Source: Lama guanicoe
Lineage: Eukaryota
Reading direction: 5' to 3'
NCBI GenBank assembly: GCA_013239625.1
Contig: MU053164.1
Coordinates: 24,734-88,733 of the forward strand
DNA: 64,000 nt
The position numbers and the translations under genes are program-made. Shown here piece by piece: positions 6,934 through 64,000 of this stretch. Under the pieces are notes generated by a model, which saw only the letters and a list, made by a program, of their open reading frames with translations, ran no database searches and had not been told where the DNA came from. Positions within the stretch are counted from its first letter, which is position 1. Each line of letters starts with the position of its first letter.

Positions 6934-7269
6934 GAAGAACATTTTTTAAGCAACTTAATTAACCTTTGGTCTATGCTAACCACAGCAAAAAGAAGTTTGC
7001 AAGGTTGTGAAGCAACTAAAATTCTCTGACAGTCTTGTTGAATATATAAATTGATACAACCACTCTAGAAAATTATCTGGTAGTTTTTTATAAGATTAAA
7101 CCTACACCTACTTTGTGACCCAACAATTTTGCCGTGAGGTGTTTATCCAAGAAAAATGAAAACGTAGGTCATAAAAAGACTAGTACAAAGCTGTGATTTT
7201 TGTAGAAATTTGTAGAAAGTCTACATTTGGTCACCTGACCAAAGGTCTGTGGCGTTTGACCTGCTGCAG

Positions 7270-7431
7270 GGAAAGCCCGTCTGCTAGTGCTGACACACGT
7301 GCGTTTCTGTCATCGGTCGTGTGCTCCAGTAGGACCCTGCTACTTGATGGCCGGGTAGAACTCAGAAGAGGCCTGCAGAGTCAGGAGCATCTTTTCCTAT
7401 TCAATGACCTGTTCGTTGTGGCCACAATCAA
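7270..7431 (+). CDS. ARHGAP20: ARHGAP20 exon (start of PH domain), [10 protein letters not shown]...[15 protein letters not shown]
   Basis: ctgcag|G acceptor, AA|gtgagt donor; matches human DSPSASVDT...[15 protein letters not shown]. Confidence 0.93.
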
Positions 7432-34400: not shown

Positions 34401-37400
34401 CCAACTGTGGGTTGTTGCACTAGGGGTGGGGTTTATGGTGAGATTGTCTGAGCCTTTTCTAGCCACTTCCCTCTCATTTTCCCAATGTGACGGTCTCTCT
34501 GCCAGTTTTTAGGTTTTTTTCCAGAGAAAATTGTCACATAGGTAGCTGTAGATACGGTGTGTGCATGGGAGGAGGTGAGTTCAGGGTCTCCCTATGTCAC
34601 CATCTTGCTAAAATCTCTCACTAAAGGGCTTTTTGTTGTGATTATTCTTTAACAATCTATGAGGACAAACTTCTGAGAATTATACTTTTTTAATATTCAG
34701 CTCCCTAACTGAAGTGTGGAGAAATACCGGCTTGGACCTTGTCCAGGCTGTCTGGGACACTAGGCCTTCCTGAACTCCACCGGCCCTGCATTTACATTTC
34801 CCTTACAGTTTTTATAGCAATTGCATGTCTTTTCACCAGTCTTTGACATTTGGAAAGTAAGAGCTGTGCATTAAAGTTCTGCAAGAAAGTAAACTTTAAT
34901 GAGATTCTTTTCTCTCAGTCCCAGAGGGAACATGAGCTCTAAAATTGAATGTTGTACATAGTAAAAGACATGGCTGCAGCTGAAAGTATTCATAATCAAG
35001 TTCAGGACTCAGTTTCTGCTTTATCCTCTGTCTGCANNNNNNNNNNNNNNNNNNNNNNNNNNNNNNNNNNNNNNNNNNNNNNNNNNNNNNNNNNNNNNNN
35101 NNNNNNNNNNNNNNNNNNNNNNNNNNNNNNNNNNNNNNNNNNNNNNNNNNNNNNNNNNNNNNNNNNNNNNNNNNNNNNNNNNNNNNNNNNNNNNNNNNNN
35201 NNNNNNNNNNNNNNNNNNNNNNNNNNNNNNNNNNNNNNNNNNNNNNNNNNNNNNNNNNNNNNNNNNNNNNNNNNNNNNNNNNNNNNNNNNNNNNNNNNNN
35301 NNNNNNNNNNNNNNNNNNNNNNNNNNNNNNNNNNNNNNNNNNNNNNNNNNNNNNNNNNNNNNNNNNNNNNNNNNNNNNNNNNNNNNNNNNNNNNNNNNNN
35401 NNNNNNNNNNNNNNNNNNNNNNNNNNNNNNNNNNNNNNNNNNNNNNNNNNNNNNNNNNNNNNNNNNNNNNNNNNNNNNNNNNNNNNNNNNNNNNNNNNNN
35501 NNNNNNNNNNNNNNNNNNNNNNNNNNNNNNNNNNNNNNNNNNNNNNNNNNNNNNNNNNNNNNNNNNNNNNNNNNNNNNNNNNNNNNNNNNNNNNNNNNNN
35601 NNNNNNNNNNNNNNNNNNNNNNNNNNNNNNNNNNNNNNNNNNNNNNNNNNNNNNNNNNNNNNNNNNNNNNNNNNNNNNNNNNNNNNNNNNNNNNNNNNNN
35701 NNNNNNNNNNNNNNNNNNNNNNNNNNNNNNNNNNNNNNNNNNNNNNNNNNNNNNNNNNNNNNNNNNNNNNNNNNNNNNNNNNNNNNNNNNNNNNNNNNNN
35801 NNNNNNNNNNNNNNNNNNNNNNNNNNNNNNNNNNNNNNNNNNNNNNNNNNNNNNNNNNNNNNNNNNNNNNNNNNNNNNNNNNNNNNNGAGATCATCCCCT
35901 TCTTGCCCCATGATCAGAGAGAGCTGAGGGGTAAAGCACCATCTCTGGCAGCATGGTTGGGTGTCAGGGTCTCACAGCCAGAACGTGATGACCAGTTTCA
36001 TGCACTGTCCCTGGTGAAAAATGTAGTCAGACTACGTGGGCACCACCTGGGGGCCTGTTCGCCTCAAGAGCTTTTTCGCATCTGCCCCACGCAATGCAGG
36101 CTTCGGGGATCAGCCAGAGGTTTGGGCAGAATTCATGCCCATTATTTGGGTTGGGGCTCCCACTAGTCTGTCTGCTCCTTCCTGGGGTTCCCCCTTCACC
36201 CTCCAGCTGCTGTGGTCATCTCCAACTCCATTCTCTATAGTTTTTTCAAACCAACAAGAGGACAGGTCTCTCTCCAAATTTTAGTCACCCCTGCCACCCT
36301 GGGTCCTGTGCTCATGGAATAAGCTGTAAAAATGGGAACCTCACCCAGCGCCATGCCATTCCCTTCTTCCAGGTGTCAAACTGTTACCTCCACTCTGTGC
36401 CTTCCTTTGGTCACTCTTCAGTGTCTCCAGGTTGGCTCTTACATATTTAAGTGTTGTCTGGAGTTTATAGCTGTTACCTGTGTGTATTTGTTTAGGCCAG
36501 CAGGTGTAGGTGGCAGAAAGGTCAAAAAGGACCCTAAACAGCTGTCTTTTTAGGTATCAGATCCTGTGCAGATTCATCCATTTTTGTCTTAAAATTAGAT
36601 GCAGATGGCATCAGAACTGTTTTAGAACTGTGATCTCACAAAACCATGATTCACTACTGAACTTTCTTCTGCCTGTTTTGTTCCTGCTGTCTTTTATCAC
36701 CTAAATGTCTGCTCAGTTCAATTACTTTCGAGAATGGTTTATTGAGTACTTACTAGACATGAGGGATGATGCTGGATCCTCTACCTGTTGAAATCGTGTT
36801 GATTCAAAATTCACATCCAATGCAGGTGCCTGCAGGACCGCTCCCTCTCTCCCAAAGGGGAGAGAGATGTGCTTCATGGTTTTTCTGAATGCCTCTGGTG
36901 CCTTGTTCCTCCCTTAGGACATTTTATTTATTAATATACTTGCTCTCCCCCCACCACCCATCACCAGTCTTGTCCCCCCATAAGATTATAAACTTTACCG
37001 TGGCAAGGGCAAGTCTCACTCATGTTTTCATCCATCCATGCTGCCTTGAACATACTTTTTAAAGTCAGGAACCAAAAAGATACATGAAAAGTCTGCAGTT
37101 GGAGAGAAAGGGGGGGAATGCAGAGCGTTAGCTTCCTGCCTCTGTGCTCAACAGCAGAGTGGGGCATCAGGTAGTAGAGCGCTCTTGTTCTCAGAGAGCA
37201 CCTTCATAGCAAAGCCTCCTCCCCTTCCCCCAGGTCTTCTTCCTCTTCTTTTCCTCCTCCTCCTCCTCATCCTTCTCCCCTCCCCCTTCTCCTTCTCTCT
37301 CCTTTCCCTCCTCCTTCTTCCTTTCTTTTTGTCATTATTGAGTTGTGGTCTAATTTGATCTTCAGCTTTTTTGTTCACTTAGTCTCCTCTTTAAAATGGC

Positions 37401-40400: not shown

Positions 40401-43400
40401 GACACCTCTGGGTGGAATTAGTCACCAATGCCACTGGAATCTAAAGTTCTAAATTACCAGGGACTTTGTTTTATTTACTACCCTGTTCCTGGCACCTCAA
40501 GCAGTGCCTGGCACAGATGAGTAAATATGTATAGAATGACTGGATGACTGACTACCACATTGTGAATCTCACAGATACCTTCGTGCATTTCTTTTAACTA
40601 GTGATTTGAGAGAGAGAGAGAAAAAAAAGATTAGGATGGTTTGCCACACTCTGCCATGTTACACTAGTTTGCTAAGATATATACAAACAGGAGGTTTCAG
40701 TCCAAACAGTTTGTCCTTTATCTTTTCCACTGTAGTCCAGACCCCATCGTCCCTCTGGTTTTTTGTTAGGAAAAAAATTCAAAGCATATTTTTCTGTGTA
40801 TGCACATCACTGGAGGGCTGGCACAGAGCTCTGTGTGTTCCAAAGAAGGGAGGACTGAACTTTCCAATAAAGTGCCTTCTTTCTAATTTCTCTAATACAA
40901 ATTAGTAGAATAACAATTTAAAAAAAATTTTCCCTCTATGTAAGGATTTTCTACGATGTATTCCGGGAAGCATCTTTTCATCAGATCTCTATGATCATTG
41001 GGTCTGTGTAATGGACGAAGGAAATGATGAGGAGAAAATAAATGCAGTTCAAAGGTAATTACTCCAATTTGGTCATTCCTCAAAAATACTTTAAAAAAAC
41101 TTATATTTTATAAGCTTGTCTGTTAATGTAATAATAACTGTCAAAGTCATATCCATAGGGGCCAGTTTAAAAATAGATTTATGCTAGCAACTGTCATTGT
41201 TATTGGTTTTTTTCCTAATCTTATTAATATGGAATACTCGACCATTGTACACCTTCTGTATATTCTAATCTGATAGGCACTGAAACCCATTAGACTAATA
41301 GCTAATACTGTAGACACAATCTACAATTTATGACCTTAATTTTGGTAAATATTTAACTAACCAGGCAATTCCTTATACACTTCATTTAGCAGCTGAATTC
41401 ATACAGAGAAAATTCCTTCCCCTCAAGGAACTCACAGTCTAGTAGAAATAGACAGATAAAACCCAGAATTCCAGGGCGGTGCAGTCAGTGCTGTGACAGG
41501 GGTATGTGGAGAAGGGGACGTGAGGACAGTCCAGAGAGACAGTCAACTCGTTGAAAGTGTCAAGGGAAAAGGGAGTTGCAAAGCCTCAGCCTGATCACAG
41601 AGAATGCATTGTCTGTCCTCATGGAAAGGGAAGTTGAGGGCAGAACCCAGCACCCCCATTCCTGAGTATTTCCCACATCATAAGAGAATAGGAAAGAAGT
41701 GTCCATTAATGAAAAGCAATACTTGCGTTTCTGTGAAACCCAAGAATCCCAGTATCATTTATTTGCAAATGCTTGTTTAGTGCAATGTTATCTTGAGCAA
41801 CTTTCAAATGTAAATCATTATCTACACGCAGCTACTGATGGTGTAAGTGTTGAAGACACCAGACTCAGAGCCATGTACAAAATGCTGTCTCTGCTTTCAT
41901 GACAGCTTGTTGGGAACTGTTCAGAGACAGGGAACCTGAGATTCTGTATTGTTGTTGCTCACTGTCTAAAACTTTATATTCTAGAAGCTATTAAAGGATG
42001 ATTTTTAAAAGGCCAAAATTATGGCTCTCATATAAATATACACACATGAAAGAAATTTTATTTAAAACATGAATTAATAAAGAGAACTACTAAGACGTTA
42101 CTGCCACCGGTTCAGCGAAGATGGTTAACTACGACAAGTTATAATAATTGAATCAGAAATGCTGAAATGATTTTATAAATAGATTTGAAAACAACTGGCT
42201 TTTTCTGCTGGGACATGAGGCAGTGCAAATAAATCACGTGTCTCTTCACCAGAGAGAATTTTCAGGTCTATGGACAAGTATTATGTGTGTTGCTGTCAAT
42301 GTGCTACAGTTTACAGAGGTGTAAAATAACTCAAAGGCTCAGGGCCCCCACAGAATCTGACACCCCAAAAGAGCACGCTAGGCAAGGCCTCACTGTCCAA
42401 TGAAAACATTCAGTAATCTTTTGGCCCATTGCAATCTGTCATAATGTGTCCCTAGAAAACCATCCTCATTGTCAGTCTGTGCTGCTGAAGAAGCGCCTCT
42501 CTGGTATTTATGCAACAAGAGCCAGATTACCTGATGTTCTTCCCCAGGTTGTGATACAGGAAAACGGGGCGCGAGAGGAGGGCTGTGTCCCAGGTCTCAC
42601 TTGAGTCCCTGGGATGCGCCCCACCAAGTGAGGGTCATTGGCTTCACGCGGGAAAGAATTCAAGAGCAAGCCCTAGTTGGGTAAAAGTAGATTTGTTTAG
42701 AGAGATGTACACTCTGTAGACAGAGTGCAGGCCGTCTCAGAACGCAGGAGAAGGGCAGAGGGGAGCAGGGTTGGGTGTTTAGTTTAAAGGAGAAGTAGAC
42801 ACACAGTCCATAGACAGAGTGCCGGGCATCTGGGAAGGTGAGGGAGCAAGAGAGTCCACGAGGCACGGTGTTGCGAGTTTTTATACGCTAACAAGTGAGA
42901 GGATTACTCCAACTGCTTTGAGGAAGGGGCGGGGATCCCCAGGAATTGGGCCACCACCCTCTCCTTGACTTTCATGGTCAGCCTCGGAGCTGTCATGGCA
43001 CCTGTGGGTGTGCCGTTCATGGTGCTAGTACATTACAATGTGTGTGAGGGAGCTCAGGGTCCGCTGGAGGTCAGATCCCCTTCCATCCTGGTCCTCAAGG
43101 TCCATCGGAAGTTGACTTTTCCTCCACCTTGGTGCTAACTGCTGTGTCATTCCTTTAATGGCTGTGTCCTGCCCCCTTCCCTCCTGTCTCAGTTGCAGAT
43201 TCTTGTTGGATAAAAGCAACAAGCATGAATGGTAGTAAAAAAAAAAAGAGGTAGTAAATGATGGTGAAGGATAATTTAAAAATCCCTTATCAAGTACAAA
43301 ATTGGAACAGTAGGAAATATACTGTTATAAGCTTGACTGATGTGTGAAAGTGGTACCACTGAGATAAAGAGACATGGGACAGAATTGACCTTAGAAGCTG

Positions 43401-46400
43401 GTGGAGCAGAGTGTAAGCTCTCAGGATGAAACTGGGTATCTTTGTGGCTGAGGCTTGAAAGGTTCTCACCCAGAGACAGAATACACAAAATAAATGAATA
43501 ACACCCCTGAGTCTTACTCTCCCCCTCTGTAAGACAGTCCTCGCTCCGCACGTACCGTATAAGCTGACACTCCTGCATCTCTGAACTGTGTTTCTGTCTG
43601 CATAGTTCCCCATGAAAAGTGAAGAAAGGTTGCCCTGTCTACAAGTTTTCCACAAAATGTCTTGATTAAAGAGCACTTTTGTCTGTCTTTAGGCTATTAG
43701 ACCAGCTCCCAAGAGCCAACGTTATTCTGCTAAAGCATCTTTTTGGGTTATTGCACAAGATTGAACAACACAATTCATCGAATCAGATGAATGCATTTAA
43801 CTTAGCGGTGTGCATCGCTCCAAGCGTCCTTTGGCCTCCTGCTTCCTCCAGCCCTGAACTAGAAAGTGAATTTACAAAAAAGGTAATGAAGTTTTTCATT
43901 TTTCTGCCCTGGGGGACTGAGTCCCCATTTTGAACCTAAAGTCTGGGGTATTAATTCTGAAAGACATGTTCTTAAGTACATCTTCTTATAAGTCTGAGTT
44001 CATCGACAGTTCTGTCCTCTCCTGGTAGACTGCAGAAAGGTGATTTCTTAAGTAAAGAAAGTGACAGTAATTGGGTTACTTCTGTTTTCCCTTTAAGGGG
44101 GCAAACAGCTATGACTGACTGAAACCATAGAGGAATAAGAGCAGATGATAAGATTTTAAAAAGAAACAAAATACTTTGAAATTAAACAGGTGCAGGTGGA
44201 AATCTCAGCCCTCCCCACTTGCCAGATGTACAATCTAGGGCAGAATTAGTTACACTGATCCACAGTTTCCTCACCTAACACAGTGGAGGTGGGGATGGTA
44301 CCTCGCTCAGTCAGTACTTACTTGAAATCACACTCCTGCAGTACCTGGTGGTTAGTACAGGGACGGGGTACTGATTCCTCTTCCTCCCAATGTTCTGCCT
44401 GTTCCTTTGCCTCAGCTATTGGGGCAAGAAGACTATGGAAATGTTCCAGTTTATCTCAGTGGAGGCACAGCTCTCCCCAGTGAGCTCTTCTCCAAGCATC
44501 TCCAGTTCTGGCTCCTCAGGGAGGGAAGTGCATGGGAAGAGGCTGGTCAGGCAAAATGTATGCTTTTCTCTCCAGCTGTCTCTCTCCTTCACAGTAAATC
44601 CACAGAGGATGCCCACCTCCCACACTTACGACACCTGCCTTTTACATAAGAAACATATTTTATAAGTCTTTATCTAATGATGCTTCATGAATTTTAATAA
44701 GAAAGTATATTTCTTCATCCCAAATGCCCTGTACAGAGAATACTTAAAATTACCCTAATTTGAAAGACAGGACCGTTAGTATAAAAATGTTAGCATTAAG
44801 CCAAGGCCACAAATAATAACTTTAAGCCACTGGTTAAAATCAATTTCTATACTCAAACCACTCTTGAAAGTATCATGTTTTTTTTAGGGGAAACAGTTCT
44901 GTTTAGTTTTCAAGGAGAAAAGAACTTTGAATTTCTCTCAGGATTCTTTCACTTTTTTTTTTTTTCGGTTTGAACCAGGATTCATACAGGAAGTGTGATT
45001 TATAGGTGCGCTATGTGAAAAGTAGCCCTTCATTTTTGCTCCTTTTTTGTACAGGTTTCTCTGCTTATACAATTTCTGATTGAAAACTGCTGTAGAATAT
45101 TTGGAGAAGAAATCACTTCCCTTCTGGAAGAGGTTTCAGTGACATGTGATACAAAAGAGAATGCCTCAGGTACTGTGAATAATGGGGTTGTTTTTGTGTG
45201 TGAGAAATAGCCACACACGTGAAGGTCAGCGAGGGCACCGGTTACCCTCAGCCCAGAGCAGCTCGGGCGAAGGGGCCTCTCGCCTGGGTCAGGGGCNNNN
45301 NNNNNNNNNNNNNNNNNNNNNNNNAGGTTCCCAAAAGACATTGTTAGTGGCAGAATTTTAACTTTTTTTTTTAAATAAACCTTACAAGGATATACAGTAG
45401 AACAATTAACAGACTTACAATATAATATATTGTTATAACATATTATATTGNNNNNNNNNNNNNNNNNNNNNNNNNNNNNNNNNNNNNNNNNNNNNNNNNN
45501 NNNNNNNNNNNNNNNNNNNNNNNNNNNNNNNNNNNNNNNNNNNNNNNNNNNNNNNNNNNNNNNNNNNNNNNNNNNNNNNNNNNNNNNNNNNNNNNNNNNN
45601 NNNNNNNNNNNNNNNNNNNNNNNNNNNNNNNNNNNNNNNNNNNNNNNNNNNNNNNNNNNNNNNNNNNNNNNAAACAGCTAGCGGGGCAGGGCAGGGTGTG
45701 TGGGGCTTGAAGACATTCAGCCTTCCAGAATATGAATGCCTGCACCACCAATTCTTGGTTATCTTTGAACAATTATTCTGTGCCACCATAACATAAGTAT
45801 CTTCTCCTCTCCTGTNNNNNNNNNNNNNNNNNNNNNNNNNNNNNNNNNNNNNNNNNNNNNNNNNNNNNNNNNNNNNNNNNNNNNNNNNNNNNNNNNNNNN
45901 NNNNNNNNNNNNNNNNNNNNNNNNNNNNNNNNNNNNNNNNNNNNNNNNNNNNNNNNNNNNNNNNNNNNNNNNNNNNNNNNNNNNNNNNNNNNNNNNNNNN
46001 NNNNNNNNNNNNNNNNNNNNNNNNNNNNNNNNNNNNNNNNNNNNNNNNNNNNNNNNNNNNNNNNNNNNNNNNNNNNNNNNNNNNNNNNNNNNNNNNNNNN
46101 NNNNNNNNNNNNNNNNNNNNNNNNNNNNNNNNNNNNNNNNNNNNNNNNNNNNNNNNNNNNNNNNNNNNNNNNNNNNNNNNNNNNNNNNNNNNNNNNNNNN
46201 NNNNNNNNGTTTTTTTTAAGGCAGCATGTATTTGAGGCAAGTGCAAATGTTAATCATGGTTTGATTTTTTTGGCAGATATCTCCTGCTTCCAGCTGAATG
46301 ACTCCTCCTATGACAGCCTGGAAAGTGAGCTGAATGAAGAAGTCGATGCTCCATGCAGTGACTTAGTAAAGAAACTCAGTCCAGGCAGCAGAAGCATGGA

Positions 46401-47880
46401 CTCCGTGTTAACCCACATTGACTCTGACCTCGAGCAGCCTGAGGCAGAAGGCGTTTTAACCTTGAGTGAGTTTGACTTAGACCATCCTAAAGATGAAGAT
46501 GTCCATGTGGAACAGCCCGGTGAGCCCGCGCCAGTGGCCATGGCAGCAGTGCACAGAAAGGCCTCACTGCAGGACCAGGCCAGTGCCCCCTCTGACACAA
46601 GCACCCCCAGCTACCTGTCCGCAGCTACAGAAGATGCTCCAAAAACCCCGATGCAACAGCGACACTGCTCGGAGCCCAGCATCGGCTACCTGGGTTCAAA
46701 GCTTTCCTTTCTTATGGCGTTTTATCAGAAAAGGATACGCAGGTCCAGCTATGATGCGATTCTCCTGAAAAAAGATGAGAACCATCTGAGTCAGAATCCA
46801 CCCCTCCAGGAAGAGGGTAAGACAGGTTTTAAAACGAGTTTAGTCACAGATACTGATGTCAAGAAAAATGCCACTGATAAAAATCATAAGGAGAAAAGCT
46901 TTTGTGATAGCGAAGGAAATCATGTAAAGCTTTTTCCTAAATCCAAGCCAGGGACCATTTCTTACAGCCGCCTGTCCTCACACGATCGTCCCAGGAACCA
47001 GCCCTTCACTGCGGACATGGCTGGGTACTCCCCACCACGCACAGCAGAGCCCTTCAAGGGCTCAAGGAGGCAGCGGCGCTGCTCAGAGCCCAGCACTGAT
47101 GACCAGCACTGCAAACTGACCTATCTCAGGGGACTTTATTCAAAAAAGCAGCAGCACAACGCGAGCTGTGACACCAGTCTCTTGCCCGGAGAGGAGGATA
47201 ATCTCAAGAGGCACAAGTCTTTGCAGATGGAGGGGCAAAAGCTTATCAGTCAGAGCTTGGTCATGGGGATCGAGGTTGGCAAGAGTGGTGCCGCAAACCA
47301 GAACACTGAGAAGGTCTTCCCCTCAACATTAAACATTTGCCCGAGGAGTAGCTGTTCCAGCTTGTCCTCCCCGGACACGTCCCCATCTGGCTCGCCAGTG
47401 AGCTCCCAAGACAGCGCTTTTCCTCAGATTTCTGAACAGTCGGTGTTTACACCCACTGAAACATCCTCTCCAGTAGATTGCACTTTTCAAGCTCAAGGAA
47501 AACAGGAAGAGCTTTCTTCTGACTTTAGCAGTTCCAGCCTCATTTCTGGAATTCCCAGTCCCTCATCAGGGCAGGCCAGCAGCCACCTGGCTCATACAAA
47601 AAAGGACAGCCTAGAGGGGCATACACAAATGCGTTCTATAACTCTTCACCCCAGCACATGGTTGAGAAATGGTATAGCCAGTTTGAAAAATTGGTCCCTC
47701 AAAAAGAAGGCAAGGGTACCGAGACCAGAAAACAATAAAACAGGTTCTCTAAAAGGACCCATGGAGCCACCTCCATTTGCTTCTGGCATTCCAGAAGCCA
47801 GCACACTGCAAGAGAGACAGACAGACATTCCCCAAAGGGCAACTGAAGGACTTGGAGCTGTGCAAACAGCCCAGTGCTGA
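7270..47880 (+). CDS. ARHGAP20: Rho GTPase-activating protein 20 (PH-RA-RhoGAP); 5'-partial spliced CDS, 13 exons in the window, C-terminus shortened by 81 aa
   Basis: Exons 7270-7431, 14383-14529, 21401-21442, 22344-22428, 25298-25375, 27534-27600, 30493-30681, 37664-37839, 39219-39380, 40945-41054, 43693-43882, 45055-45169, 46277-47880. All are AG/GT bounded and phase-compatible, joining into one open frame (3127 nt) collinear with recalled human ARHGAP20. Orthologue versus paralogue cannot be settled from this window. Confidence 0.93.
8612..9130 (-). mobile_element. MaLR (MLT1-type) solo LTR
   Basis: caacaaattatcccaaaac, gtggcttagctgg..ctggctcagaggctctcatgaggttgcagtc, ttttggaggccgggtaccaca. 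Confidence 0.7.
9605..12610 (+). mobile_element. L1 5' portion: 5' UTR, degenerate ORF1 and start of ORF2 endonuclease; 3'-truncated
   Basis: L1 5' start motif (gagctcacctacccccagg..ctacatgtggagcaattctcact), A-rich ORF1 relic, and the peptide [16 protein letters not shown]...[14 protein letters not shown] (12181-12420). Confidence 0.88.
11616..11708 (+). mobile_element. 93-bp 5'-truncated L1 3' end nested in the older L1
   Basis: tgtgctgtacaccagaaattgacacattgtaactgactgtacttcaa L1 terminus, flanked by 14-bp TSD GAAGTAACAAGTTA (11602-11615 and 11709-11722). Confidence 0.85.
14383..14529 (+). CDS. ARHGAP20: ARHGAP20 exon (PH domain), [20 protein letters not shown]...[11 protein letters not shown]
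   Basis: ctttctag|A acceptor, AG|gtgaga donor; strong peptide match. Confidence 0.93.
15790..16280 (+). mobile_element. L1MC-like 3' end fragment
   Basis: ctcaaaactgtcaaggtca, gagacatgataactaaatgcaatgtggtatcttggatggatcctagaacagaaaaaaggacatta, poly-A tail. Confidence 0.7.
16290..19430 (+). mobile_element. Old L1 5'/ORF1 fragment split by the TPST2 retrocopy (16290-17020 and 19163-19430)
   Basis: atgttggaattaccataaaagaacttta|aagcagctcttatgactatgctc is continuous across the insertion and resembles L1M ORF1. Confidence 0.6.
17021..19150 (+). pseudogene. TPST2: Processed pseudogene of tyrosylprotein sulfotransferase 2
   Basis: Intronless MRLSVRR...[12 protein letters not shown]...[10 protein letters not shown] (17680-18645). 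Premature TAA at 18175-18177, a 56-codon in-frame deletion, and the native stop changed to CGA. A-rich tail about 19140-19150; 12-bp TSD AAAAGAACTTTA at 17009-17020 and 19151-19162. Confidence 0.96.
21401..21442 (+). CDS. ARHGAP20: ARHGAP20 42-nt exon, [14 protein letters not shown]
   Basis: ttcattgcag|T acceptor, AG|gtattt donor; matches human [14 protein letters not shown]. Confidence 0.9.
22344..22428 (+). CDS. ARHGAP20: ARHGAP20 exon, [28 protein letters not shown]
   Basis: gattag|A acceptor, TGT|gtaagt donor; peptide match. Confidence 0.92.
25298..25375 (+). CDS. ARHGAP20: ARHGAP20 exon (RA domain), [26 protein letters not shown]
   Basis: Long polypyrimidine tract with cctacag|T acceptor, ACT|gtaagt donor. 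Confidence 0.92.
27534..27600 (+). CDS. ARHGAP20: ARHGAP20 exon (RA domain), [23 protein letters not shown]
   Basis: ctccaag|G acceptor, G|gtaagt donor; matches human [15 protein letters not shown]. Confidence 0.92.
28616..29132 (-). mobile_element. Young 5'-truncated L1 (3' end)
   Basis: Poly-T start, L1 3' UTR/ORF2-end motifs (gcatccatgttgctgcaaatggcatta, gagtagtattccattgt), and 14-bp TSD CCAGTTTATTTCTT (28602-28615 and 29133-29146). Confidence 0.92.
30493..30681 (+). CDS. ARHGAP20: ARHGAP20 exon (end of RA domain), [14 protein letters not shown]...[18 protein letters not shown]
   Basis: gtgtag|GA acceptor, G|gtgagt donor; peptide match. Confidence 0.93.
32302..33070 (-). mobile_element. 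hAT (Charlie1-like) DNA transposon fragment with transposase C-terminal relic
   Basis: Minus-strand peptide [26 protein letters not shown] (hAT dimerisation motif); end resembles the Charlie1/MER58 terminus (cagggctc..actttttctgtaaagggccagg). Confidence 0.8.
33080..34608 (-). mobile_element. Rearranged L1 fragments: ORF2 3' part (-), inverted ORF2 piece (+, about 33820-34025) and an L1 5' end (-)
   Basis: ataaatacccagcagtggaattgctg and gcagaagctttttagtttgatgta (minus); tttatatggaatcacaaaagacctagaattgcc (plus); ggaggtgagttcagggtctccctatgtcaccatcttg is the reverse complement of an L1 5' start. Confidence 0.75.
37215..37330. repeat. Polypyrimidine (CCT/CT-rich) low-complexity tract
   Basis: Directly visible C/T-rich run including cctcctcctcctcctc. 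Confidence 0.85.
37664..37839 (+). CDS. ARHGAP20: ARHGAP20 exon, [21 protein letters not shown]...[12 protein letters not shown]
   Basis: ccttag|AT acceptor, TTG|gtaagt donor; peptide match. Confidence 0.93.
39039..39057. repeat. (AC)n microsatellite
   Basis: Directly visible dinucleotide run. Confidence 0.85.
39219..39380 (+). CDS. ARHGAP20: ARHGAP20 exon (RhoGAP domain with intact arginine finger GIFR, AGA at 39270-39272)
   Basis: ccccatag|G acceptor, AAG|gtggga donor; [22 protein letters not shown]...VIASVLK. Confidence 0.95.
40945..41054 (+). CDS. ARHGAP20: ARHGAP20 exon (RhoGAP), [19 protein letters not shown]...EEKINAVQR
   Basis: gtaag|GAT acceptor, AG|gtaatt donor; K-DFLR RhoGAP motif across the junction. 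Confidence 0.93.
42552..43191 (-). mobile_element. ERV1-class solo LTR (640 bp)
   Basis: TG...CA termini (TGATAC...GTCTCA), 4-bp TSD GTTG at 42548-42551 and 43192-43195, and ERV1 LTR-like motif gggaaagaattcaagagcaagcc. Confidence 0.85.
43693..43882 (+). CDS. ARHGAP20: ARHGAP20 exon (RhoGAP), LLDQLPRAN...[19 protein letters not shown]...EFTKK
   Basis: ctttag|G acceptor, AAG|gtaatg donor; RhoGAP NxMxxxNLAxxxxP motif. Confidence 0.95.
45055..45169 (+). CDS. ARHGAP20: ARHGAP20 exon (end of RhoGAP), [24 protein letters not shown]...ENAS
   Basis: ttttgtacag|G acceptor, G|gtactg donor. Confidence 0.93.
46277..47880 (+). CDS. ARHGAP20: ARHGAP20 terminal coding exon (Ser-rich tail), ending early at ...VQTAQC-TGA
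   Basis: ttggcag|AT acceptor; lies within ORF 46261-47880; matches human [16 protein letters not shown]...[16 protein letters not shown]. Confidence 0.93.
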
Positions 47881-48633
47881 TGCTGAGGACACGCATTCAA
47901 CCAAAGACATTTAACCACAATCAGAATCTAATATCTGCAAGGACAGAAACCGGGCTAATAACATAAAGATAATAATTATTATGACCCCTGTGTATAGAAT
48001 AACCAAGACAGGTAGCATCAAGGTTATCACTGCTGATACTTAGGACAAAAAAAGAATCCTCTTTATTGAGACTATTTGGCAAAAAGTTGAGACTAAAAGA
48101 TTTTATCACCTGTTTGGGAGGACAGACATTCCCCAAAGGGCAGCTGAAGGACTTGGAGCTGTGCAAACAGCCCAGTGCTGCAGTCCTTACCCCAGCCAGG
48201 ACTCGGAGAAGGATGGTAGCTCTCCATCCAGCCTGGCGGGAGATGGACTTGAGCTTTGTATGAAGTCCCCTGAGGAAGGAGAGAAGGATGAGCAGTGTTC
48301 TGGTACTCTGCCTCTAGAAGGATCCTCACCCAGCTCTTTGACAGTGGATGACATGTCCAGCCCAGACTCAGGGCCAACAGTGGTTTCTGATGCTGAGGAC
48401 ACGCATGTAACCAAAGACATTTAACCACAATCAGAATCTAATATTTGCAAGGACAGAAACCGGGCTACTAATAACATAAAGATAATAATTACTATGACCC
48501 CTGTGTATAGAATAACCGAGACAGGTAGCATCGGGGTTATCACTGCTGATACTTAGGACAAAAAAAGAATCCTCTTTATTGAGACTATTTGGCAAAAAGT
48601 TGAGACTAAAAGATTTTATCACCTGTTTGGGAG
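47820..48633 (+). repeat. Tandem duplication of the ARHGAP20 stop-codon region (copy 1 47820-48120, copy 2 48121-48633)
   Basis: Both copies start gacagacattccccaaagggc and end atcacctgtttgggag. Copy 1 lacks the segment equivalent to 48181-48389; the copies also differ by 8 substitutions and a 3-nt indel. Confidence 0.95.
48179..48424 (+). pseudogene. ARHGAP20: Stranded ancestral ARHGAP20 C-terminal coding segment (CSPYPSQDSEK...DAEDTHVTKDI-stop), now downstream of the stop codon
   Basis: ORF 48161-48424 aligns to the recalled human C-terminus CSSSPFQDSE...SPDSGPTVVCDIEDRYLTKDI. Confidence 0.85.
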
Positions 48634-49458
48634 GCTTTTCCTTATTAGAGCATGGATTGATCCTGTCATGCATTTTAAGAGATCCGAGCAGAGGGCTAAA
48701 GAAGCATCATCTTCTCTAGAGGAAACATGCCTTAGATGACACTAAGAAGGCAAGGATATCAAAAGTGAAGAATAAAAACCATGGACAGAGTGGGAAGTCT
48801 GCAAAGAAACCATCCGCATTCCATGAAATGTTTTTAATAAGTAAGCAAGAAAAATACCACCAATCAAAGCATTAAGAAGGAAAGCATGTCAGATGATCAA
48901 GGAAATCACGTCAGACTTTTCCCTGAAACCAAGCGAGTGGCCAGTTCTGAGACATCTCATAGTCAATCACGTGCCCTCACAGAATCATTCCAGGTACCAG
49001 CCCATTAAGGCAGCTAGAGTGGAAAAAACTCGAGGGATTCGAGCCACAAGTACCAAGACATCATAGTTTTTGTTGGTCAATTTGTTTTTCCATGGGTGTT
49101 TCACTGCTCTACAGAGGCCCCCGGACATAGCTATGGGGAGAAAGAAGGAAATGGGTGCTCATTTCAGTGTTCTTTCCGGAGATGCCTGAGCCAGGAACAT
49201 TCTCCAGAAGTGCACTTTTCCCTCCTAGGAGGTGCCCTCCTGACAGCATTCGCTGTCTGGGTGAGGAGGAAGAGTCTGCAACAACAGTCATTCCTGTGTT
49301 ACATGGTCATCGTTGCCAACAGGTGATCAAAGCAGGACCCCACTTTGCGGAAATGTTTTTCTGCAGCCTTGTCTCTAGGATTAATCAGCCAAAAAAAATT
49401 GCTGATAAATTCTCCCTTTTCCGATGACCAATTCACAGCTAAGAGAGCAGTTTATAGA

Positions 49459-50034
49459 GCTGGCAGGTTATAAAGAGTCACAGAAAAGAAGAGCCACCAC
49501 AGTGGCACTCAGGCCTTCTTTCAGACAGTCCTCGACACTGGATTTTCTCACCTCCAGAACTTTTTACATCTTTTTCTCCCAAAATGATTCATGGTCTATA
49601 CCCCACTGGAATAAACCAATGGGGTATACACCACGGTGCGTGCCCCACTGGAACACACCAGTGGGGTATACACCATGGTGCGTGCCCCACTGGAATACAC
49701 CAAAGTGGTATACACCGAATGGGGTATAAACCATGGTGTATACCACATTGGTTTATTCCAGTGGAGCACACACAGTGGTGTAGACCCCATTGGTTTATTC
49801 CAGTGGGGCACACACCGTGGTGTTTACCCCATTGGTGTATTCCAGTGGGGCACACACCGTGGTGTTTACCCCATTGGTGTATTCCAGTGGGGTATAGACC
49901 ATGAATCATTTTGGGACAAAAAGATGTAAAAACTTCTGGAGGTGAGAAAATCCAGCATCGAATACTGTCTGAAAGAAGGCCTGACAGCCACTGTGGTGGC
50001 TCTTCTGTTCTGTGATTCTTTACAACCTGCCAGC
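49459..50034. repeat. 576-bp palindrome (inverted duplication) with an internal 42-bp minisatellite
   Basis: 49459-49600 is the reverse complement of 49893-50034 (11 mismatches in 142 bp, no indels). Repeat units start at 49601, 49643, 49685; inverted units end at 49892, 49850, 49808, 49766. Confidence 0.95.
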
Positions 50035-51104
50035 CCCTCTCTCTGAAAGGTTACACCTCTCCTGGATTACCTCCATTTATGATTGGGCCTTGCCAGACAG
50101 TACCATGTGACAATCAGGGATGGCTGTGCACCTTCCTTCATTTTAAACACTTACTTATTAGTAATTGCTTAGAACCCATTTGACCTCTTTAATTCAAATT
50201 CCAATAGCCCTTTCTCCCACAAACTTGTTTATTTCAAATCACCTTTCTTAGCCACCCAGAAACTTTCATGCCATATATGCGTCCCCTGTTGTCCTAAAGA
50301 TTGTATTTTTTGTTATAAAAAAAATATTTTTTCTGTAAACTAGAAGAAGTCCTTTCAGTATTAGCTTAGGTGCTACCTACCTCTCGGGGACATGGCCCTT
50401 TTTGTCCTAAGCAGTATAATAAGCCGTTAGAATTCTGTGTCCAAAGAGCTCCTTTATGACACTGGCCATCCTAGTCACAGATGTGAAGTAGATTTCACCT
50501 TATCACCAACCACTCCTATATTGAGACTCCTCCAAGTATCCCTATGCATCTCACGTGATATGATAGATGAGAGCAGCAGGGTTCCCCTCACCTTGTGGGC
50601 CCACTACTGTCAGAACTGCAATGTGTGAATGAAGCTCTATTGCTTGGAGCGTCTTTTCCAGAAACAAACTTCTTCTCTACTTAACAAAATAATAGTTCTA
50701 GCCATGTTTTGTTTTTCTTTTGTATTGGCGGGAGAAAATCATACGCCCAGTTTGAAGCAGAGAAAAGAATAGATACGCTTCTTTAATAACCATTTCTACT
50801 CTGTGTTCCCTTAGACACTCCTTACATATTTAATGTGAATACTTAATATTGCTTTAAAGTATTATATTGTATGATTTGAAGACAGACTACATGTCATTTT
50901 ATTACACTCTTGTCAGTCTATAAAATATTAGACTGATGCTTTATGTAAGATGCTTTTGAGTTTGTATAATATATCTTGACAAATTTTACTACCTTATGTT
51001 ATGTAAGAAATGTGTATTTTTGTACTTGCAGAAACTGCTAACTTTTAAAGTTGTTTGATTTTTCAAGGCACTGATAATAGATATGTATGAAGTCCATGCT
51101 ATAT

Positions 51105-51110
51105 ATTAAA
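51105..51110 (+). promoter_or_regulatory. Candidate ARHGAP20 polyadenylation signal (ATTAAA)
   Basis: ATTAAA at the end of an AU-rich, UTR-like tract with TG-rich sequence downstream. Alternative AATAAA hexamers occur at 48771 and 49610. Confidence 0.35.
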
Positions 51111-54100
51111 TGAAACACCATTCTTCAAAAGTTAACAATCCCACCAGAGTTATTACTCTGCCCTTTGTGTAACTGTTTTAGCTAATAAGCTCAATTTCTG
51201 CTTAACGTTGGGAATTTCATAAAATGTAATTAATGCTGAATTGGAACTTTGAACTTNNNNNNNNNNNNNNNNNNNNNNNNNNNNNNNNNNNNNNNNNNNN
51301 NNNNNNNNNNNNNNNNNNNNNNNNNNNNNNNNNNNNNNNNNNNNNNNNNNNNNNNNNNNNNNNNNNNNNNNNNNNNNNNNNNNNNNNNNNNNNNNNNNNN
51401 NNNNNNNNNNNNNNNNNNNNNNNNNNNNNNNNNNNNNNNNNNNNNNNNNNNNNNNNNNNNNNNNNNNNNNNNNNNNNNNNNNNNNNNNNNNNNNNNNNNN
51501 NNNNNNNNNNNNNNNNNNNNNNNNNNNNNNNNNNNNNNNNNNNNNNNNNNNNNNNNNNNNNNNNNNNNNNNNNNNNNNNNNNNNNNNNNNNNNNNNNNNN
51601 NNNNNNNNNNNNNNNNNNNNNNNNNNNNNNNNNNNNNNNNNNNNNNNNNNNNNNNNNNNNNNNNNNNNNNNNNNNNNNNNNNNNNNNNNNNNNNNNNNNN
51701 NNNNNNNNNNNNNNNNNNNNNNNNNNNNNNNNNNNNNNNNNNNNNNNNNNNNNNNNNNNNNNNNNNNNNNNNNNNNNNNNNNNNNNNNNNNNNNNNNNNN
51801 NNNNNNNNNNNNNNNNNNNNNNNNNNNNNNNNNNNNNNNNNNNNNNNNNNNNNNNNNNNNNNNNNNNNNNNNNNNNNNNNNNNNNNNNNNNNNNNNNNNN
51901 NNNNNNNNNNNNNNNNNNNNNNNNNNNNNNNNNNNNNNNNNNNNNNNNNNNNNNNNNNNNNNNNNNNNNNNNNNNNNNNNNNNNNNNNNNNNNNNNNNNN
52001 NNNNNNNNNNNNNNNNNNNNNNNNNNNNNNNNNNNNNNNNNNNNNAAAAAAAATCTATTCTGGTTATGAGGATATCTCATAAGCTAACTTTCCTGCTGAA
52101 AGGAAGAGTACTCTTGAGTTCTGGGTTTTCTACACCAAGCATGAGTCTCCCTTATTTCTGAGCCATTTCTTGGTATAAATCCTTTGTGTGTGTGTGTGTA
52201 TGTTCATGTGTGTGTTTAAGTAAACTCCTTAAGCTTCAGTTCTGCATGATGTCAGTGTGTGATAGAATTTGTAGAAGGCTCTAGGGTGTGATTTGGAAAA
52301 TTTTGTTTCCGAATCCTCAAAAAATATACACAGGATGGTATTAGATATATATTGTTACTTAATTTGTACAGCATGTGTGCTCATTGTGTAGTGCCAGAGT
52401 GCACATACGTACGTAGGAAGATAGTTCAAAGTGCTTCTCTAATATATTTTAATTTGTTAAGGCAAAGTAAATACGTTTTCTGGAGTTTGGCCTTATATGA
52501 CAATGTGAGATGCAGGTTTGGGAGATGTTGAGGTTTAAATGCTAGTTGTTTTATCTAGGTTTGATTTTTAGATTACAGCAACTTGGAATTCAGTTTAGAA
52601 CTCCTCACAGCCTCTTGATCTGCTGTGAGGAGTGAATAAATTAGCTAAAAACCTATACTTGTGAGGCAGGCCCATTACTTTGAGCAAGTAAAATAGATAT
52701 TTTAAAGAAATACTCCATCTTTCCCAGGTCACAGAGATGGTGATTATTACAGCCTAAAATTTTTAGAGGGAAAGGAAACATTCTATCTTTGCCCCAAGAA
52801 TGAGATGACTAAGAAGCAGAGAATCTTCAAAATACATGAACACAGAGAAGCTTACTGCTTGAAGGCACAGCAAATGAATAGAGGGGGAGGAAAGCCAGAG
52901 ATGAGCTAATTCAAGCAATAAATTGAATCACAAGGAGTTTAGAGAAAATTGAGAAAAGGGAAAGAGTGTGGCCAGAGGGAGATAGAAGTGTTACAAATGA
53001 TATAAATGCTAGTCAGACAGTGTAATTTTTATTGCCAGGTACTGTTCTAGACCCTAGGATACAAGGTAAAAAAGGATAGCTTGTTTCTGTCCTCAAGTAC
53101 TTTAAAATAACTTGGGAAAATTAGGCTGCAGAGAAGAAGGGGAGCAGTGAACACCCACTGGGCACTTAACTGTTGCCTCCATGCACTGGTGATCTGCACA
53201 TTGTTTTATTTCATTTAATGTTCACTATATCCTATGTGGTGGGTACCTTCAGAACCTCACTCTGACTCCAGGCTCTTTTTTTCACCCTTTCATCTTAAAA
53301 TAGTTTCCATAATAAAGCAGACACAAGGCGTGTACATGAGGACCTATCCAAACCTTACTAATTTATTGTGTCTCAGTTAAATATCTCTAAGAAAATCCCC
53401 TCTCCCCTCCAAGTGTCTTCCAACAGGGACACCTGCCGATGCCACACAAGCACTCAGAGCTGTGGCAGTGGACAGAGCAGCAATTGGAACTGTAAGAGGG
53501 GGACAAGCAAACAGAGCCCCCCTCAGCTGGGCTGGGTCTGAGGGATGCTCTGACCTATGGCTCTACCTATCCTGGCGTCCAACACAGGCCAGAGGTGATA
53601 GACAAAGTCAGAGGAGCTGATTTCAGTCAAGGCAGCTCTCTGCACCCTGTCGCACTAGATCAACCAGTGGTTGGTCTGGTGTCATGTAGACAAAACAACT
53701 ATTTGATGAGTGAGTCTTTCACTTCCCACAGCTCAAGTCAGCATGAGTCTAGGGTGGTGCCTGCCAAGTAGTGGGCAAATTGTGGCCCCAAACATGTTGC
53801 TGTTTGCCATGCTGGAGGCGGCCCCACATTCCCACTGCCCTCAGAGGGGTTTGGTTTGGAGCTGGGGGCAACAGAAGGAAGCTAAGACTGGGAAACTGAC
53901 AACTAGGATGGGGCTAACCTGAAAAGGTCTCAGGGGTTTCCCAAGTTTAGTTACCCTCTTGTCCAGAGTGGGGTTGGCAGAGACCTTGGCCTCACCCCAG
54001 CGTGTGCCTGTGTGTGCCTGACCAGGCTGTAACAAAGGCTTTCTCGGAATCTGAGGTTAAGAAAGATGAAGGGCAGGGGCCGCCTGTCTGTCTGCAATGG

Positions 54101-55497
54101 TCATATTACATAATAATAGCTTTCTCTGATCTTTCTTCTGCCTGTTCGTGGTTTCTCTACTTCCCTTCAACTTTGTAACGTGACACCCAGCTGCTGGCTT
54201 CTTACCTCTGCTACCTGCCCCCACCTCCCAAATCTCAGATTCACACAGAGAACAGAGACCCCTCCTGTTTTGAAGCCTGGAGGATCACACCAGTTCCCTT
54301 ACAATCCCTCTGTTTGCTGGACTCATTGTTTAGTGATGCTGTAGCCAGTTGAGGGCCATTCATCCTGCCTCCATGTCTCCCTTTCCCAGTTTAGTCTAAG
54401 GTTACTGTGCTGGAAAAATCTGAGCAAAGTCGTAATGTGAGAATGTATCCCTAGTCCCTGAAGTTCAGGTTTTCTGTGGCTTTAAATATCACCTTGGGTT
54501 TTTGGGTTTTTTTTTTTAACTAATTTTTCTTTGTATGAACTTTCCTAACACTTAAGTATAGCTAAGGTTAAAAGTATATGATATAATTAAGAAGAAGGTG
54601 ATTACATCTTATCCGTAAATGAAATATTTTGATGATGACCTACCATTCTATTACATAGGAAGAATTTGTAAAATATATGTATTTTCAAGGAAGAGTTAGC
54701 CTTGCTTTTCTAAATTTATGTGTTTTTTTCTGTGAGATTGGGTTCTGAGAGCCAGCCTTTCAGTTGAATACTTTGATACACATGGTCTAATCTTTTTTTC
54801 AAAGATTAGCTTCATGTAGCTTTAATATTTATATAGTTTCTTTGTCTAGAAGTATTACTTTAATTGAACTAAGCTCTGAATACATGAGGAAAAGAAGAGG
54901 ATCGCAGTGCCAGGAAAGTGCTGCCTGGTTGGGCACTGGACTAGGATTCAGAGAATGACTACTCACCGAGGGGTCCTGAGAAGTCAGTCCCCATGGGCTT
55001 TGAAGTGGGTTTAATAATAATACCACATCTGGTTGGGTTGTTGAGAAAACTGAACTGCATGAGGGATGTGAAAGTGCTTGGAAGCCCCAAATCACTGTAT
55101 ATTTCTATTATGTCCTGCTATTTTTGCAGCAGAAAAAATTGGATTATTTGTCTTATTATTGAGTTGAAAGAGTTTATTATGCATCCTGTATACAAAGCCT
55201 TTATTAGACATATTATCTGCAGTTGTTCTGTCCCTGACTGTGGCTTGTCTTTTCATTTTTTTAATAATGCTTTTTGAAAAGCATATGCTTTTTTTTTTAG
55301 AAAGTTCAATTTATTGTTTCTTCCTGTTTTGTAGCCTATACTTTTGATGAGTTATTTAGAAATAATTACCAAATCCAAGGTTATGAGGATTTACTCTTAT
55401 GTCTTCTTTCAAGAGTTCAAGAGTTTCATTTATTGCAGTTAGATATATTATCCATTTTGTTAATTTTTATATATGTTATGAAGTAAGGATCTAAGTC

Positions 55498-62470: not shown

Positions 62471-62869
62471 TGTAAGAGATCTATGTATTCTAAGAGATTC
62501 ACTTCTCTAGGATTTTTTATACTGTATTGTAAAGGTAATTTCACCCACCTGTTATCTTAGTCTATCGTGTACGTATCTGTCTCCACACCTGTAAGTGGGA
62601 ATAACACTATGTACCTTCAAAACCTGGCAAAAAATGGGTGCTCAGTTCATGTCACTGTACATTTCTGTCTCCACCATCAGATTGGTGCTCTCCCAGGGCA
62701 GGGACTGAATCTTAACTTGTGTAGCAACCAGGGCCCAGCTCTGTGCCAGCAAGGAGAGGTTTTTCAATACAGTTTGTTGACTGAGTAAATGACAGCGCCT
62801 CCCAGACGCAATCTCCAGGCTGCAATTCAAGGATCTGAGGGAGGGAACGAGGGGCTGAGGCAGTGAAGC

Positions 62870-63470
62870 GGGAGAAAGCACTTCCCTGCGGGGGGCCAGC
62901 AGGGTCCGGTGGTGGGGGAGAGCCTCCTCCCCCAGGCCTCTGGCGCGGGACCTCGGGAGTGGGGATGCGGGTAGGTGGGACCCGGCCAGGAGGCGGTAGC
63001 TTTTCCTCCTGAGCACTCGCTGCCCTGGTGGGCCGTGCGGAGCTGGCCAGCTGCTTTCTGTCCCTCTGCCACTCCCTTTATCCCCCCAAACGCTCTGCCC
63101 AGAGGAGGAGCAGATGGAGCAGCAGGAGGAGCAGGCCGAGCCGGAGAAGGAGGTCGCTAGCGTCGCGCCCGCGCGGCCGCCCGAGCCTCCCTTGGGCTCC
63201 CACTGCCCTGGTTCGGCCCGGCCGGACCCGGCCTCGCCGGCGCCGGCAGCCGGACGGGGGCGCCGCGGCCCCTCGCCGCCCGGGCGCTCGGCCACCCGGC
63301 TGCCGCGGCCGCCGCCCCTTCTGCCCGCAGAGCGGCCGCAGCCAGGCTGGGCAGCCCCGGGGCGCCCCGCCGCGGGCATCGCCCTCCCCGGGCAAACAGC
63401 CCTTCTCAGCCAGGGGTTCGCCACGCCCCCACGGAGCACTTCCAGGCTCGCAATTAGGGTCTAGTCCACC
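62870..63470. promoter_or_regulatory. CpG island with an exon-like acidic/Pro-rich ORF (63114-63464); gene not recognised
   Basis: Sharp GC/CpG-rich block; pyrimidine tract with cccag acceptor-like site at 63101-63102. Confidence 0.6.
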
Positions 63471-64000
63471 CCTCCGTTTACGCACTAGGGCAGAAGGGGA
63501 AGCAACTGGTCAAAGTGGCGTGGTGGACTAGGGACAGAGTCAGCCCTAGGCTCTAACCCCAAACCCCGGTCCTCCCTTGCCTCTGCCCTGTGTCCAACAC
63601 AGGCATTTCACTCAATTATGCCTCCCAAGTCCCTCTGGACTCCCCAGGCTCCCCTGGCTCTGCATGCTCTGAGTCAAAGACAGGTCCTGTGTACCACTGG
63701 GGCTGGAAGCCCCCATCATAGGCCTCCTGCCTTCCCTCTTGTCCCCCTAACATCCCATCCCCCATCCAGCAGCCAAAGTGATCTCTTAGAACATGAATCT
63801 GACCACCACAATGCCCTGTTTAAAAGTGACATCTTTCAGCACACTGGGAACACAGGTGAGAGCCAGGCCCACAGCCCCAGGCCCCTGCCTTTACTCCTCT
63901 CCTCCCACTAAGCTCAGCCTCTGGTCTGAGCTCCAACCTGCCAAGTTCATTTCCACCCCAGAGTCTTTGCACTTGCTGTTCCCTCTTCCCCAAACACTTT

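Follow-up and report, generated by a model that had tools for sequence, protein, structure and literature searches.

The question raised by this locus is how a palindrome of more than half a kilobase came to lie downstream of the coding sequence of an ARHGAP20-like gene of Lama guanicoe and, once there, whether its pairing potential is a selected device or is simply tolerated. The window (the whole stretch of 64,000 nt that was analysed) is mammal-like in composition, with a GC content of 40% and a CpG observed/expected ratio of 0.28. The palindrome, at 49459-50034 of the window, is a further case of already known kinds of structure; it is real, it is old, and it is in the 3′ region of the gene.

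Architecture of the palindrome and its gene

The 576 nt of the palindrome comprise two arms of 258 nt each (49459-49716 and 49777-50034) that are 91% complementary and a spacer of 60 nt. On the + strand, the outer, low-copy part of the left arm (49459-49600), which is probably original UTR sequence, is followed by a left block of 42-bp satellite units (49601-49716), in which TRF finds 2.8 period-42 copies with 89% matches. The right block (49730-49892, + strand), whose units are in inverted orientation, has 3.9 copies with 92% matches, and leads into the outer part of the right arm (49893-50034, + strand), apparently an inverted copy of the left arm whose outer edge would mark where it was joined to the old right flank. 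Between them is the centre (49717-49776, with no strand assigned), which is the spacer of the main pairing register and contains an additional unit of the right-hand set as well as the flip in unit orientation, around ACCATGGT (49730-49737). The TRF counts correspond to approximately three units on the left and four on the right, and since the assembly is a gapped draft with N gaps near the palindrome, the number of units may be collapsed.

The initial annotation described the outer arms (49459-49600 and 49893-50034) as having 11 mismatches in 142 positions, with no indels and with three tandem mismatch doublets, and a position-by-position script count reproduces this (the doublets are at 49507/8, 49530/1 and 49536/7). 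It also had pairing continuing through the 42-bp units to give a stem of about 250 bp, with which the measured arm length agrees; the inner, repeat-made part of the arms has 12 mismatches in 116 positions, bringing the overall figure to 23 in 258. Each 42-bp unit carries inverted 9-mers, CCCCACTGG...CCAGTGGGG, together with a quasi-palindrome of the type CACC(A/G)(C/T)GGTG, and with two quasi-palindromic modules in a unit many pairing registers are available, one alternative (I2) having a spacer of 18 nt. Short inverted homology able to prime a fold-back is present at the centre. As RNA, the 576 nt have a predicted fold of -468.7 kcal/mol, compared with -177.4 +/- 7.2 when the sequence is shuffled (100 shuffles, not one of them matching it; z = -40.5), and in the MFE fold the centre is occupied by small hairpins. 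Each structural point of the initial annotation is borne out by the sequence.

By its sequence matches, the gene is an ARHGAP20-like paralog of camelid type, truncated by a duplication at its stop codon. The best match to the translation of the last exon (46300-47877) is a Vicugna pacos ARHGAP20-like protein, at 94%, and ARHGAP20 proteins of many mammals also match. The five best protein matches are all from camelids (Vicugna pacos at 94%, Camelus ferus at 91% and 89%, and two more from Vicugna at 86%), and those that follow are at 74% or less. With the best-match protein as query, tblastn finds 13 exon matches on the + strand, in colinear order from 14333 to 47877, from which it follows that the whole gene is inside the window, and the identity first suggested for it stands. 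The last coding exon is at 46273-47880 on the + strand (ORF 45769-47880), with residues 478-1012 of the best-match protein, P0001, aligning to 46273-47877 at 94%. No relevant literature on ARHGAP20 in camels was found, judged by title.

The reading frame ends prematurely at 47878-47880, after ...GAVQTAQC, because the sequence around the stop codon has undergone imperfect tandem duplication, of about 513 bp (47820-48634, + strand), which is visible as three sets of direct repeats: 47820-47879 with 48121-48180 (98%), 47877-47981 with 48387-48491 (89%) and 47955-48121 with 48468-48634 (98%). P0001, as annotated in Vicugna pacos, has the same ...GAVQTAQC end, and other family members extend about 100 residues beyond it, to ...TKDI. 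The ancestral C-terminal coding piece (48181-48424, with the ancestral stop at 48422-48424) is now in the UTR, and residues 1084-1185 of a second protein, P0003, match 48119-48421. In another copy of the region, on contig C6043, window sequence from 48121 onward maps to 8867 onward and window 47877-48121 maps to 9136-9387, which fits a single copy. Comparison of the coding exon with C6043 over 477 codons gives a dN/dS of 0.70 with no stops, and on this measure the gene is evolving under weak constraint. The palindrome begins 1.6 kb past the present stop codon and 1.1 kb ahead of an ATTAAA (51105-51110, + strand) considered below.

Copies of the region and the history of the arms

In the 2.05-Gb genome, the 142-nt arm has 9 matches, and a 34-mer from it, with up to 3 mismatches permitted, has 8 in five contigs (two each in C254, C6043 and C7076, and one each in C9286 and C33722), the reversed control having none; being searches of a draft assembly, these give lower bounds. 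A metagenome scan with the same 34-mer gave 0 matches. Four of the five contigs share sequence of the ARHGAP20 region with the window, C33722 is a fragment of 268 bp, and the immediate flanks of the palindrome are likewise low-copy. An inverted SINE pair was set aside on the count of 9 for the arm. A dispersed MITE was rejected since the contigs with arm matches are copies of the ARHGAP20 region and there is no target-site duplication at the palindrome (it is flanked by the octamers TTTATAGA on the left and CCCTCTCT on the right), the low copy number also being pertinent. The initial annotation, in recognising neither type of element and seeing no target-site duplication, was right on both counts, and the arm matches found elsewhere are confined to region copies and the one small fragment.

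The copies differ in what they retain. On C6043, the sequence follows that of the window colinearly, beginning in the last exon and taking in the flanks on either side of the palindrome (89-94%). In C7076, the palindrome stands between a match to 42053-46800 (98-99.5%) and one to 50345-51256 (92.6%); relative to the window this contig has a deletion of 2.66 kb (46801-49457), with 46800 joined directly to 49458 in gap-free sequence, so that one edge of the deletion is 1 nt outside the left edge of the palindrome. It is also a mosaic, window-like in its left part (at 98-99.5% up to 46800) and C6043-like in its right part. The junction could come from a real deletion broken at the base of the palindrome, from recombination between paralogs, or from chimerism in the assembly. 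What C9286 shares with the window is a single arm, the right flank and, at 91.8%, the stretch 52047-54406. Its arm (76-81%) is far more diverged than this more distal flank.

Beside the right arm and right flank of C9286 is an array of 42-bp units in a single orientation, for which TRF finds 47 period-42 copies in 6025-8000 and 238 in 8001-18000, together with higher-order periodicity at 250 and 293 bp. Matches to the satellite reach 35797, at the start of an N gap, so that the array measures ~30 kb or more, and beyond the gap (35847-36130) the sequence does not match the window. Six more contigs were examined and all six are almost wholly 42-bp repeat. The core of the palindrome is accordingly the same 42-bp satellite that forms long head-to-tail arrays elsewhere in the genome. 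The main text of an alpaca satellite survey (PMC13751797), which deals with units of 1.8-8.5 kb, has no mention of 42 bp, palindromes, inverted repeats or ARHGAP20. With deletions and differences in array size beside the palindrome, the region is structurally unstable, which matters for assembly and annotation of camelid ARHGAP20-like genes.

Given a draft assembly with N gaps close by, several leftover contigs that break at the palindrome (C41990 stops within the left arm) and the mosaic appearance of C7076 on either side of 46800, the palindrome might be suspected of being an assembly artefact, either a fold-back chimera or a mis-joined repeat. However, 23 mismatches in 258 positions with no indels is not what would be expected of such an artefact, C6043 and C7076 have arm-specific substitutions in common, and the sampled words from 48700-51250 are contained in 14 DNA-type runs at a share of 0.50-0.60 (a weak point, as the share alone is no proof of presence). 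An artefact is scarcely credible. The early argument that an arm divergence of 8% betokens a real, old structure rather than an assembly fold-back is in fact reinforced by the left- and right-specific substitutions in two other copies.

The arms of these copies allow their relationships to be followed. The left arms of C6043 and C7076 are 97.2% identical and their right arms 95.2%, compared with 91-93% for left versus right within a copy, and the changes common to the two contigs in an arm-specific manner mean that the arms have been independent since before the two copies split. No homogenisation of the arms is visible in the alignment of C6043, C7076 and the window. With the other copies as outgroup, about 6-7 of the 11 outer mismatches can be assigned to change on the left arm (6 clearly; 49537 is ambiguous). 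One doublet, GACACTGG in one arm versus GATGCTGG in its partner, with GACGCTGG in the other arms, resembles CpG decay on opposite strands.

Were the hairpin a selected regulatory device, with the UTR duplex kept for the sake of endo-siRNAs or of edited dsRNA that tunes ARHGAP20-like paralogs, the retention of hairpin potential by two copies or more (z = -40 for the palindrome of the window, -36 for that of C6043) would be explained, and since arms of different paralogs are 90-94% alike, small RNAs from one could act in trans on another. The substitution pattern is at odds with this. Arm identity within a copy is 91.6%, in the window and C6043 alike, versus 89.5-93.7% between copies, i.e. the within-copy divergence of 8.4% equals the 6-10% between copies, and with arm divergence equal to paralog divergence nothing suggests that pairing is under selection. 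Only 1 of 143 positions has both arms of one copy sharing a state unlike that of the other copy, in the sense RNA G-U wobbles account for just 3 of the 23 arm mismatches, and unit numbers vary freely among copies. Selection for the hairpin is therefore considered improbable. Its potential persists in C6043 because the palindrome is young enough, and the present palindrome looks like a tolerated by-product and not a selected device.

A processed retrocopy and the order of events

A stretch of the 36-Mb scaffold C55230 (L015 4950-6010) matches window 50058-51137 at 81.6% over 1097 columns (blastn). The homology ends about 27 nt past the ATTAAA and is followed by a degenerate A-rich tail, the whole being bracketed by ATAAAAAGCTTA and ATAAAAATCTTA, a candidate target-site duplication of 12 nt. 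No other part of the gene is near it on C55230, and the stretch (L015 ~4868-6010) is best interpreted as an old, 5′-truncated processed retrocopy. That its homology stops at 51137 and gives way to an A-rich tail points to a poly(A) site once used there, and its counterpart in the window (50058-51137, + strand) would be distal 3′ UTR. (C7800, for a time a candidate for a second retrocopy, is another region copy after an N gap and runs past 51137.)

Of particular relevance is the 5′ end of the retrocopy. Directly after the candidate target-site duplication it has AAATGATTCATGG plus TATACCCCACTGG, and 26 of these 28 nt are identical to the junction of the left arm and first unit; there follows approximately one unit, of C6043 type, and then, about 40 nt on, the right flank from ~50037. 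Nothing in the retrocopy corresponds to the outermost ~128 nt of the right arm. The comparison with the palindrome involves one old copy and short alignments, the 28-nt match and a weaker stretch of ~17 nt. The 5′ piece folds no better than its shuffles (z = 0.15), so that what is claimed is restricted to absence of the right arm, and an earlier notion that the retrocopy keeps an inverted repeat of 14-17 nt was dropped on the same result. Splicing, brought to mind by the acceptor-like CAG at the arm end, was discarded as the cause of the missing right arm, as about 10-12 nt of the junction are a misfit. A deletion within the retrocopy after its formation may nevertheless be the source of the absence.

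Fold-back duplication is the best reading of a retrocopy in which the end of the left arm nearest the centre, roughly one unit and the right flank are present and the right arm is missing. On the sequence comparisons we put at about 60% the probability that the palindrome is locus-specific and arose when UTR sequence was duplicated locally in inverted form by fold-back, with the quasi-palindromic unit as the seed, rather than being a transposon. The ancestral UTR would have had the order left-arm sequence, approximately one 42-bp quasi-palindromic unit, present right flank. A break or stalled fork immediately 3′ of the unit would have allowed the free 3′ end to fold back on the short inverted repeats of the unit, the folded end then priming reverse-complement copying of the unit or units and ~130 nt of the left arm, after which the newly made end would have been joined to the right flank. 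Such a route yields an inverted duplicate with an arbitrary outer edge and no target-site duplication. The 42-bp unit would also have been amplified in tandem, to 3+4 units here and to ~30 kb or more in another region copy, and the palindrome would have been inherited by later paralogous copies, with its arms drifting apart at the neutral rate.

There is precedent for the type of event proposed. Fold-back-primed templated inverted duplications at breaks in yeast, involving microhomology and end-joining capture of the other end, are described in PMC11724301, and PMC10622511 provides a further precedent for them. As depicted in these two sources and in PMC10766186, fold-back duplications resemble the palindrome in that the duplicate abuts its template, an inverted microhomology acts as seed, the outer junction is arbitrary and there is no target-site duplication. 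There are also differences. The events of PMC11724301 are mostly of 5-34 bp, and others reported are very large chromosomal palindromes, whereas here the extent is ~130-260 nt and the product is fixed in the germ line, its mechanism being read from sequence alone.

Kimura-type distances (K2P) were used for the ordering of events. They are greatest for the retrocopy versus the window (0.179) and versus C6043 (0.150), followed by arm versus arm (0.082), window versus C6043 flanks (0.065-0.077) and C6043 versus C7076 (0.030).

Foldback-type elements and tandem-repeat MITEs have unique outer inverted ends and inner tandem sub-repeats in mirrored orientation. The architecture of the palindrome recalls such elements, and the edge of the C7076 deletion, at 1 nt from the left edge of the palindrome, is as might be found with a discrete unit, which together bring into consideration a non-autonomous foldback or MITE-like transposon that inserted in the UTR before the paralogs arose, the satellite then being its internal repeats. 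What the palindrome lacks by comparison with these transposons is a target-site duplication, independent insertion sites and any coding partner seen. The eight 34-mer matches, coming from four ARHGAP20-region contigs and the one 268-bp contig, provide no independent insertion site among the five contigs. Moreover, the retrocopy has inner palindrome sequence joined to the right flank and not an empty site, and the right arm in C9286 continues into the same right flank. Insertion of a transposon is quite unlikely in the light of these features, and fold-back duplication remains the preferred origin. Two observations weigh against the fold-back model: the position of the C7076 deletion edge, which the model does not predict and which may be a sign of mobility or of a break at the base of the palindrome, and the unusual divergence of the C9286 arm.

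If the fold-back origin is correct, the locus offers a germ-line case of palindrome formation in which a before state, in a dated retrocopy, and an after state can be compared. A satellite would, in addition, be traceable to a short motif within the UTR of a gene.

The palindrome at the RNA level

For any effect in the mRNA, both arms need to be in the transcript. Downstream of the stop codon, as far as the N gap at 51257 (scan of 47881-51256), the + strand has three canonical poly(A) signals: AATAAA at 48771-48776, a possible upstream signal before the palindrome; AATAAA at 49610-49615, within the first left unit, in its loop; and the ATTAAA at 51105-51110, for which the retrocopy suggests cleavage at ~51137. 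The second of these is specific to the window copy, with C6043, C7076 and the retrocopy having TCTATT/TTTATT in its place, and a GT-rich stretch is found about 20-35 nt after it; it could terminate transcripts ahead of the second arm. The ATTAAA and the sequence around it have been retained in every copy (at 92-93% over 50345-51137 in C6043 and C7076). Extension of the UTR to near 51105, which the initial annotation had raised as a condition for the hairpin, is thus backed for the ancestral transcript, in which ~51137 was probably a poly(A) site in use, though not specifically for the window paralog. Sampled words of 48700-51250 are present in 4 RNA-labelled runs at a share of 0.06-0.08, a figure that is no evidence of expression.

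We infer that both arms are transcribed in the window copy. It is possible, if on the unlikely side, that the palindrome is real and yet outside the mature mRNA of this copy, either with transcripts ending at AATAAA 48771 or 49610 or with a paralog that is barely expressed. The two AATAAA ahead of the right arm would be compatible with this, that at 49610 especially in view of the GT-rich stretch trailing it, as would the truncating duplication at the stop codon, the weak constraint on the coding sequence and the fact that the retrocopy testifies to the ancestral gene and not to the window paralog. Against it are the similarity of the ATTAAA region among the copies, the lack of any stop within the 477 compared codons of the reading frame, and inclusion in the Vicugna pacos annotation of a protein with the identical truncated end.

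An mRNA of the window copy that reaches ATTAAA 51105 would bear an imperfect duplex of ~258 bp, and a dsRNA role for the palindrome is plausible. By analogy with inverted repeats in other 3′ UTRs, the duplex would be bound by ADAR and partly edited, and could feed Dicer in oocytes; a part for Staufen or MDA5, both brought up in the initial annotation, would be hypothetical. The best experimental guide is provided by the MosIR transgenic mice (PMC3245926), in which a long hairpin is likewise downstream of the coding region: mice with the long 3′-UTR hairpin mRNA are reported there to be viable and to mount no interferon response, with editing slight and with RNAi robust in oocytes alone. The MosIR hairpin is engineered and perfect to near-perfect, whereas the palindrome is natural, 9% mismatched and has several pairing registers. 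Among natural structures the nearest class is that of IRAlus-type pairs, where two inverted copies of ~250-300 nt in a 3′ UTR form a long imperfect duplex, and for inverted SINE pairs in 3′ UTRs ADAR editing and effects on nuclear retention or translation are reported (PMC4378195, PMC11263572, PMC3458544). In IRAlus the arms are SINEs and derive from two insertions; those of the palindrome are low-copy UTR sequence plus a 42-bp satellite, and would derive from one local event. Provided that the fold-back origin is true, the palindrome would be a natural, non-SINE counterpart of the engineered 3′-UTR hairpins for considering how long dsRNA is routed in mammals.

A more speculative extension, to which we attach little likelihood, is that the 42-bp motif seeded both a camelid UTR hairpin and a new satellite, the latter expanding to tens of kilobases in a sister copy, and that the mRNA with the hairpin serves as a natural hairpin-RNA locus, with small RNAs from the hairpin, or the edited duplex, exerting control of dose in trans on paralog UTRs that are 90-94% similar, inside a gene family that is young. 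In Rfam, none of the 13 matches at E <= 1 reaches its gathering threshold, the best, to mir-559, having 36 bits versus a threshold of 95; in kind, these sub-threshold matches are hairpin-shaped and miRNA-like.

A tandem duplication and the end of the reading frame

At window positions 47820-48634, a segment of about 513 bp in the ARHGAP20-like gene is imperfectly duplicated in tandem, and its first copy has lost about 206 bp. The duplication has led to a premature stop codon (47878-47880), with the consequence that a former C-terminal coding segment, extending to 48424, is left within the UTR. The truncated C-terminus of the window's open reading frame is the same in the Vicugna pacos ARHGAP20-like protein P0001. 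On contig C6043 of the same genome, which bears another copy of the gene region, the duplicated region is present as a single copy, as judged by mapping to the window.

Copies across the genome

Several diverged copies (K2P 0.03-0.08) represent the 3′ portion of the ARHGAP20-like gene, on C254, C6043, C7076, C9286, C7800 and several contigs of less than 1 kb, and this multiplicity fits with camelid annotations, which list several ARHGAP20-like proteins. Portions of the window recur at 99.7-100% identity in some leftover contigs, and the assembly near the copies is fragmented and possibly chimeric. On C7076, exon position 46800 is fused directly to 49458, 1 nt from the left edge of the palindrome, at 29110-29124 (4711-4725 of the extracted stretch, L013), a deletion of 2.66 kb relative to the window in sequence that is there gap-free; N gaps lie within that copy's palindrome and directly beyond it. 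In C9286 8001-18000 (L014), the 42-bp satellite has higher-order periods of 250, 293 and 375 bp, and the near-identity (97-98%) of the higher-order copies in a 704-bp block (L014 5675-6378) suggests recent local amplification. On C55230 (about 18639067-18640240; L015 about 4868-6041), the distal 3′ UTR of ARHGAP20 is present as a 5′-truncated processed retrocopy; it ends in a degenerate A-rich tail and has a candidate target-site duplication of 12 nt, 11/12 identical.

A probable processed pseudogene and GC-rich stretches

Two adjacent open frames interrupted by a stop, at 17593-18930 on the plus strand, resemble, from a 16-residue motif, an intronless sequence that is presumably of tyrosylprotein-sulfotransferase type. 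Given the interrupting stop and the location inside the ARHGAP20-like gene, this sequence is probably a processed pseudogene. GC-rich stretches resembling CpG islands lie at 6300-7000, 17000-17900 and 62600-63500, and both of their strands give long open frames. The first of them is directly upstream of the first exon match (7235-7432) of the long ARHGAP20 form.
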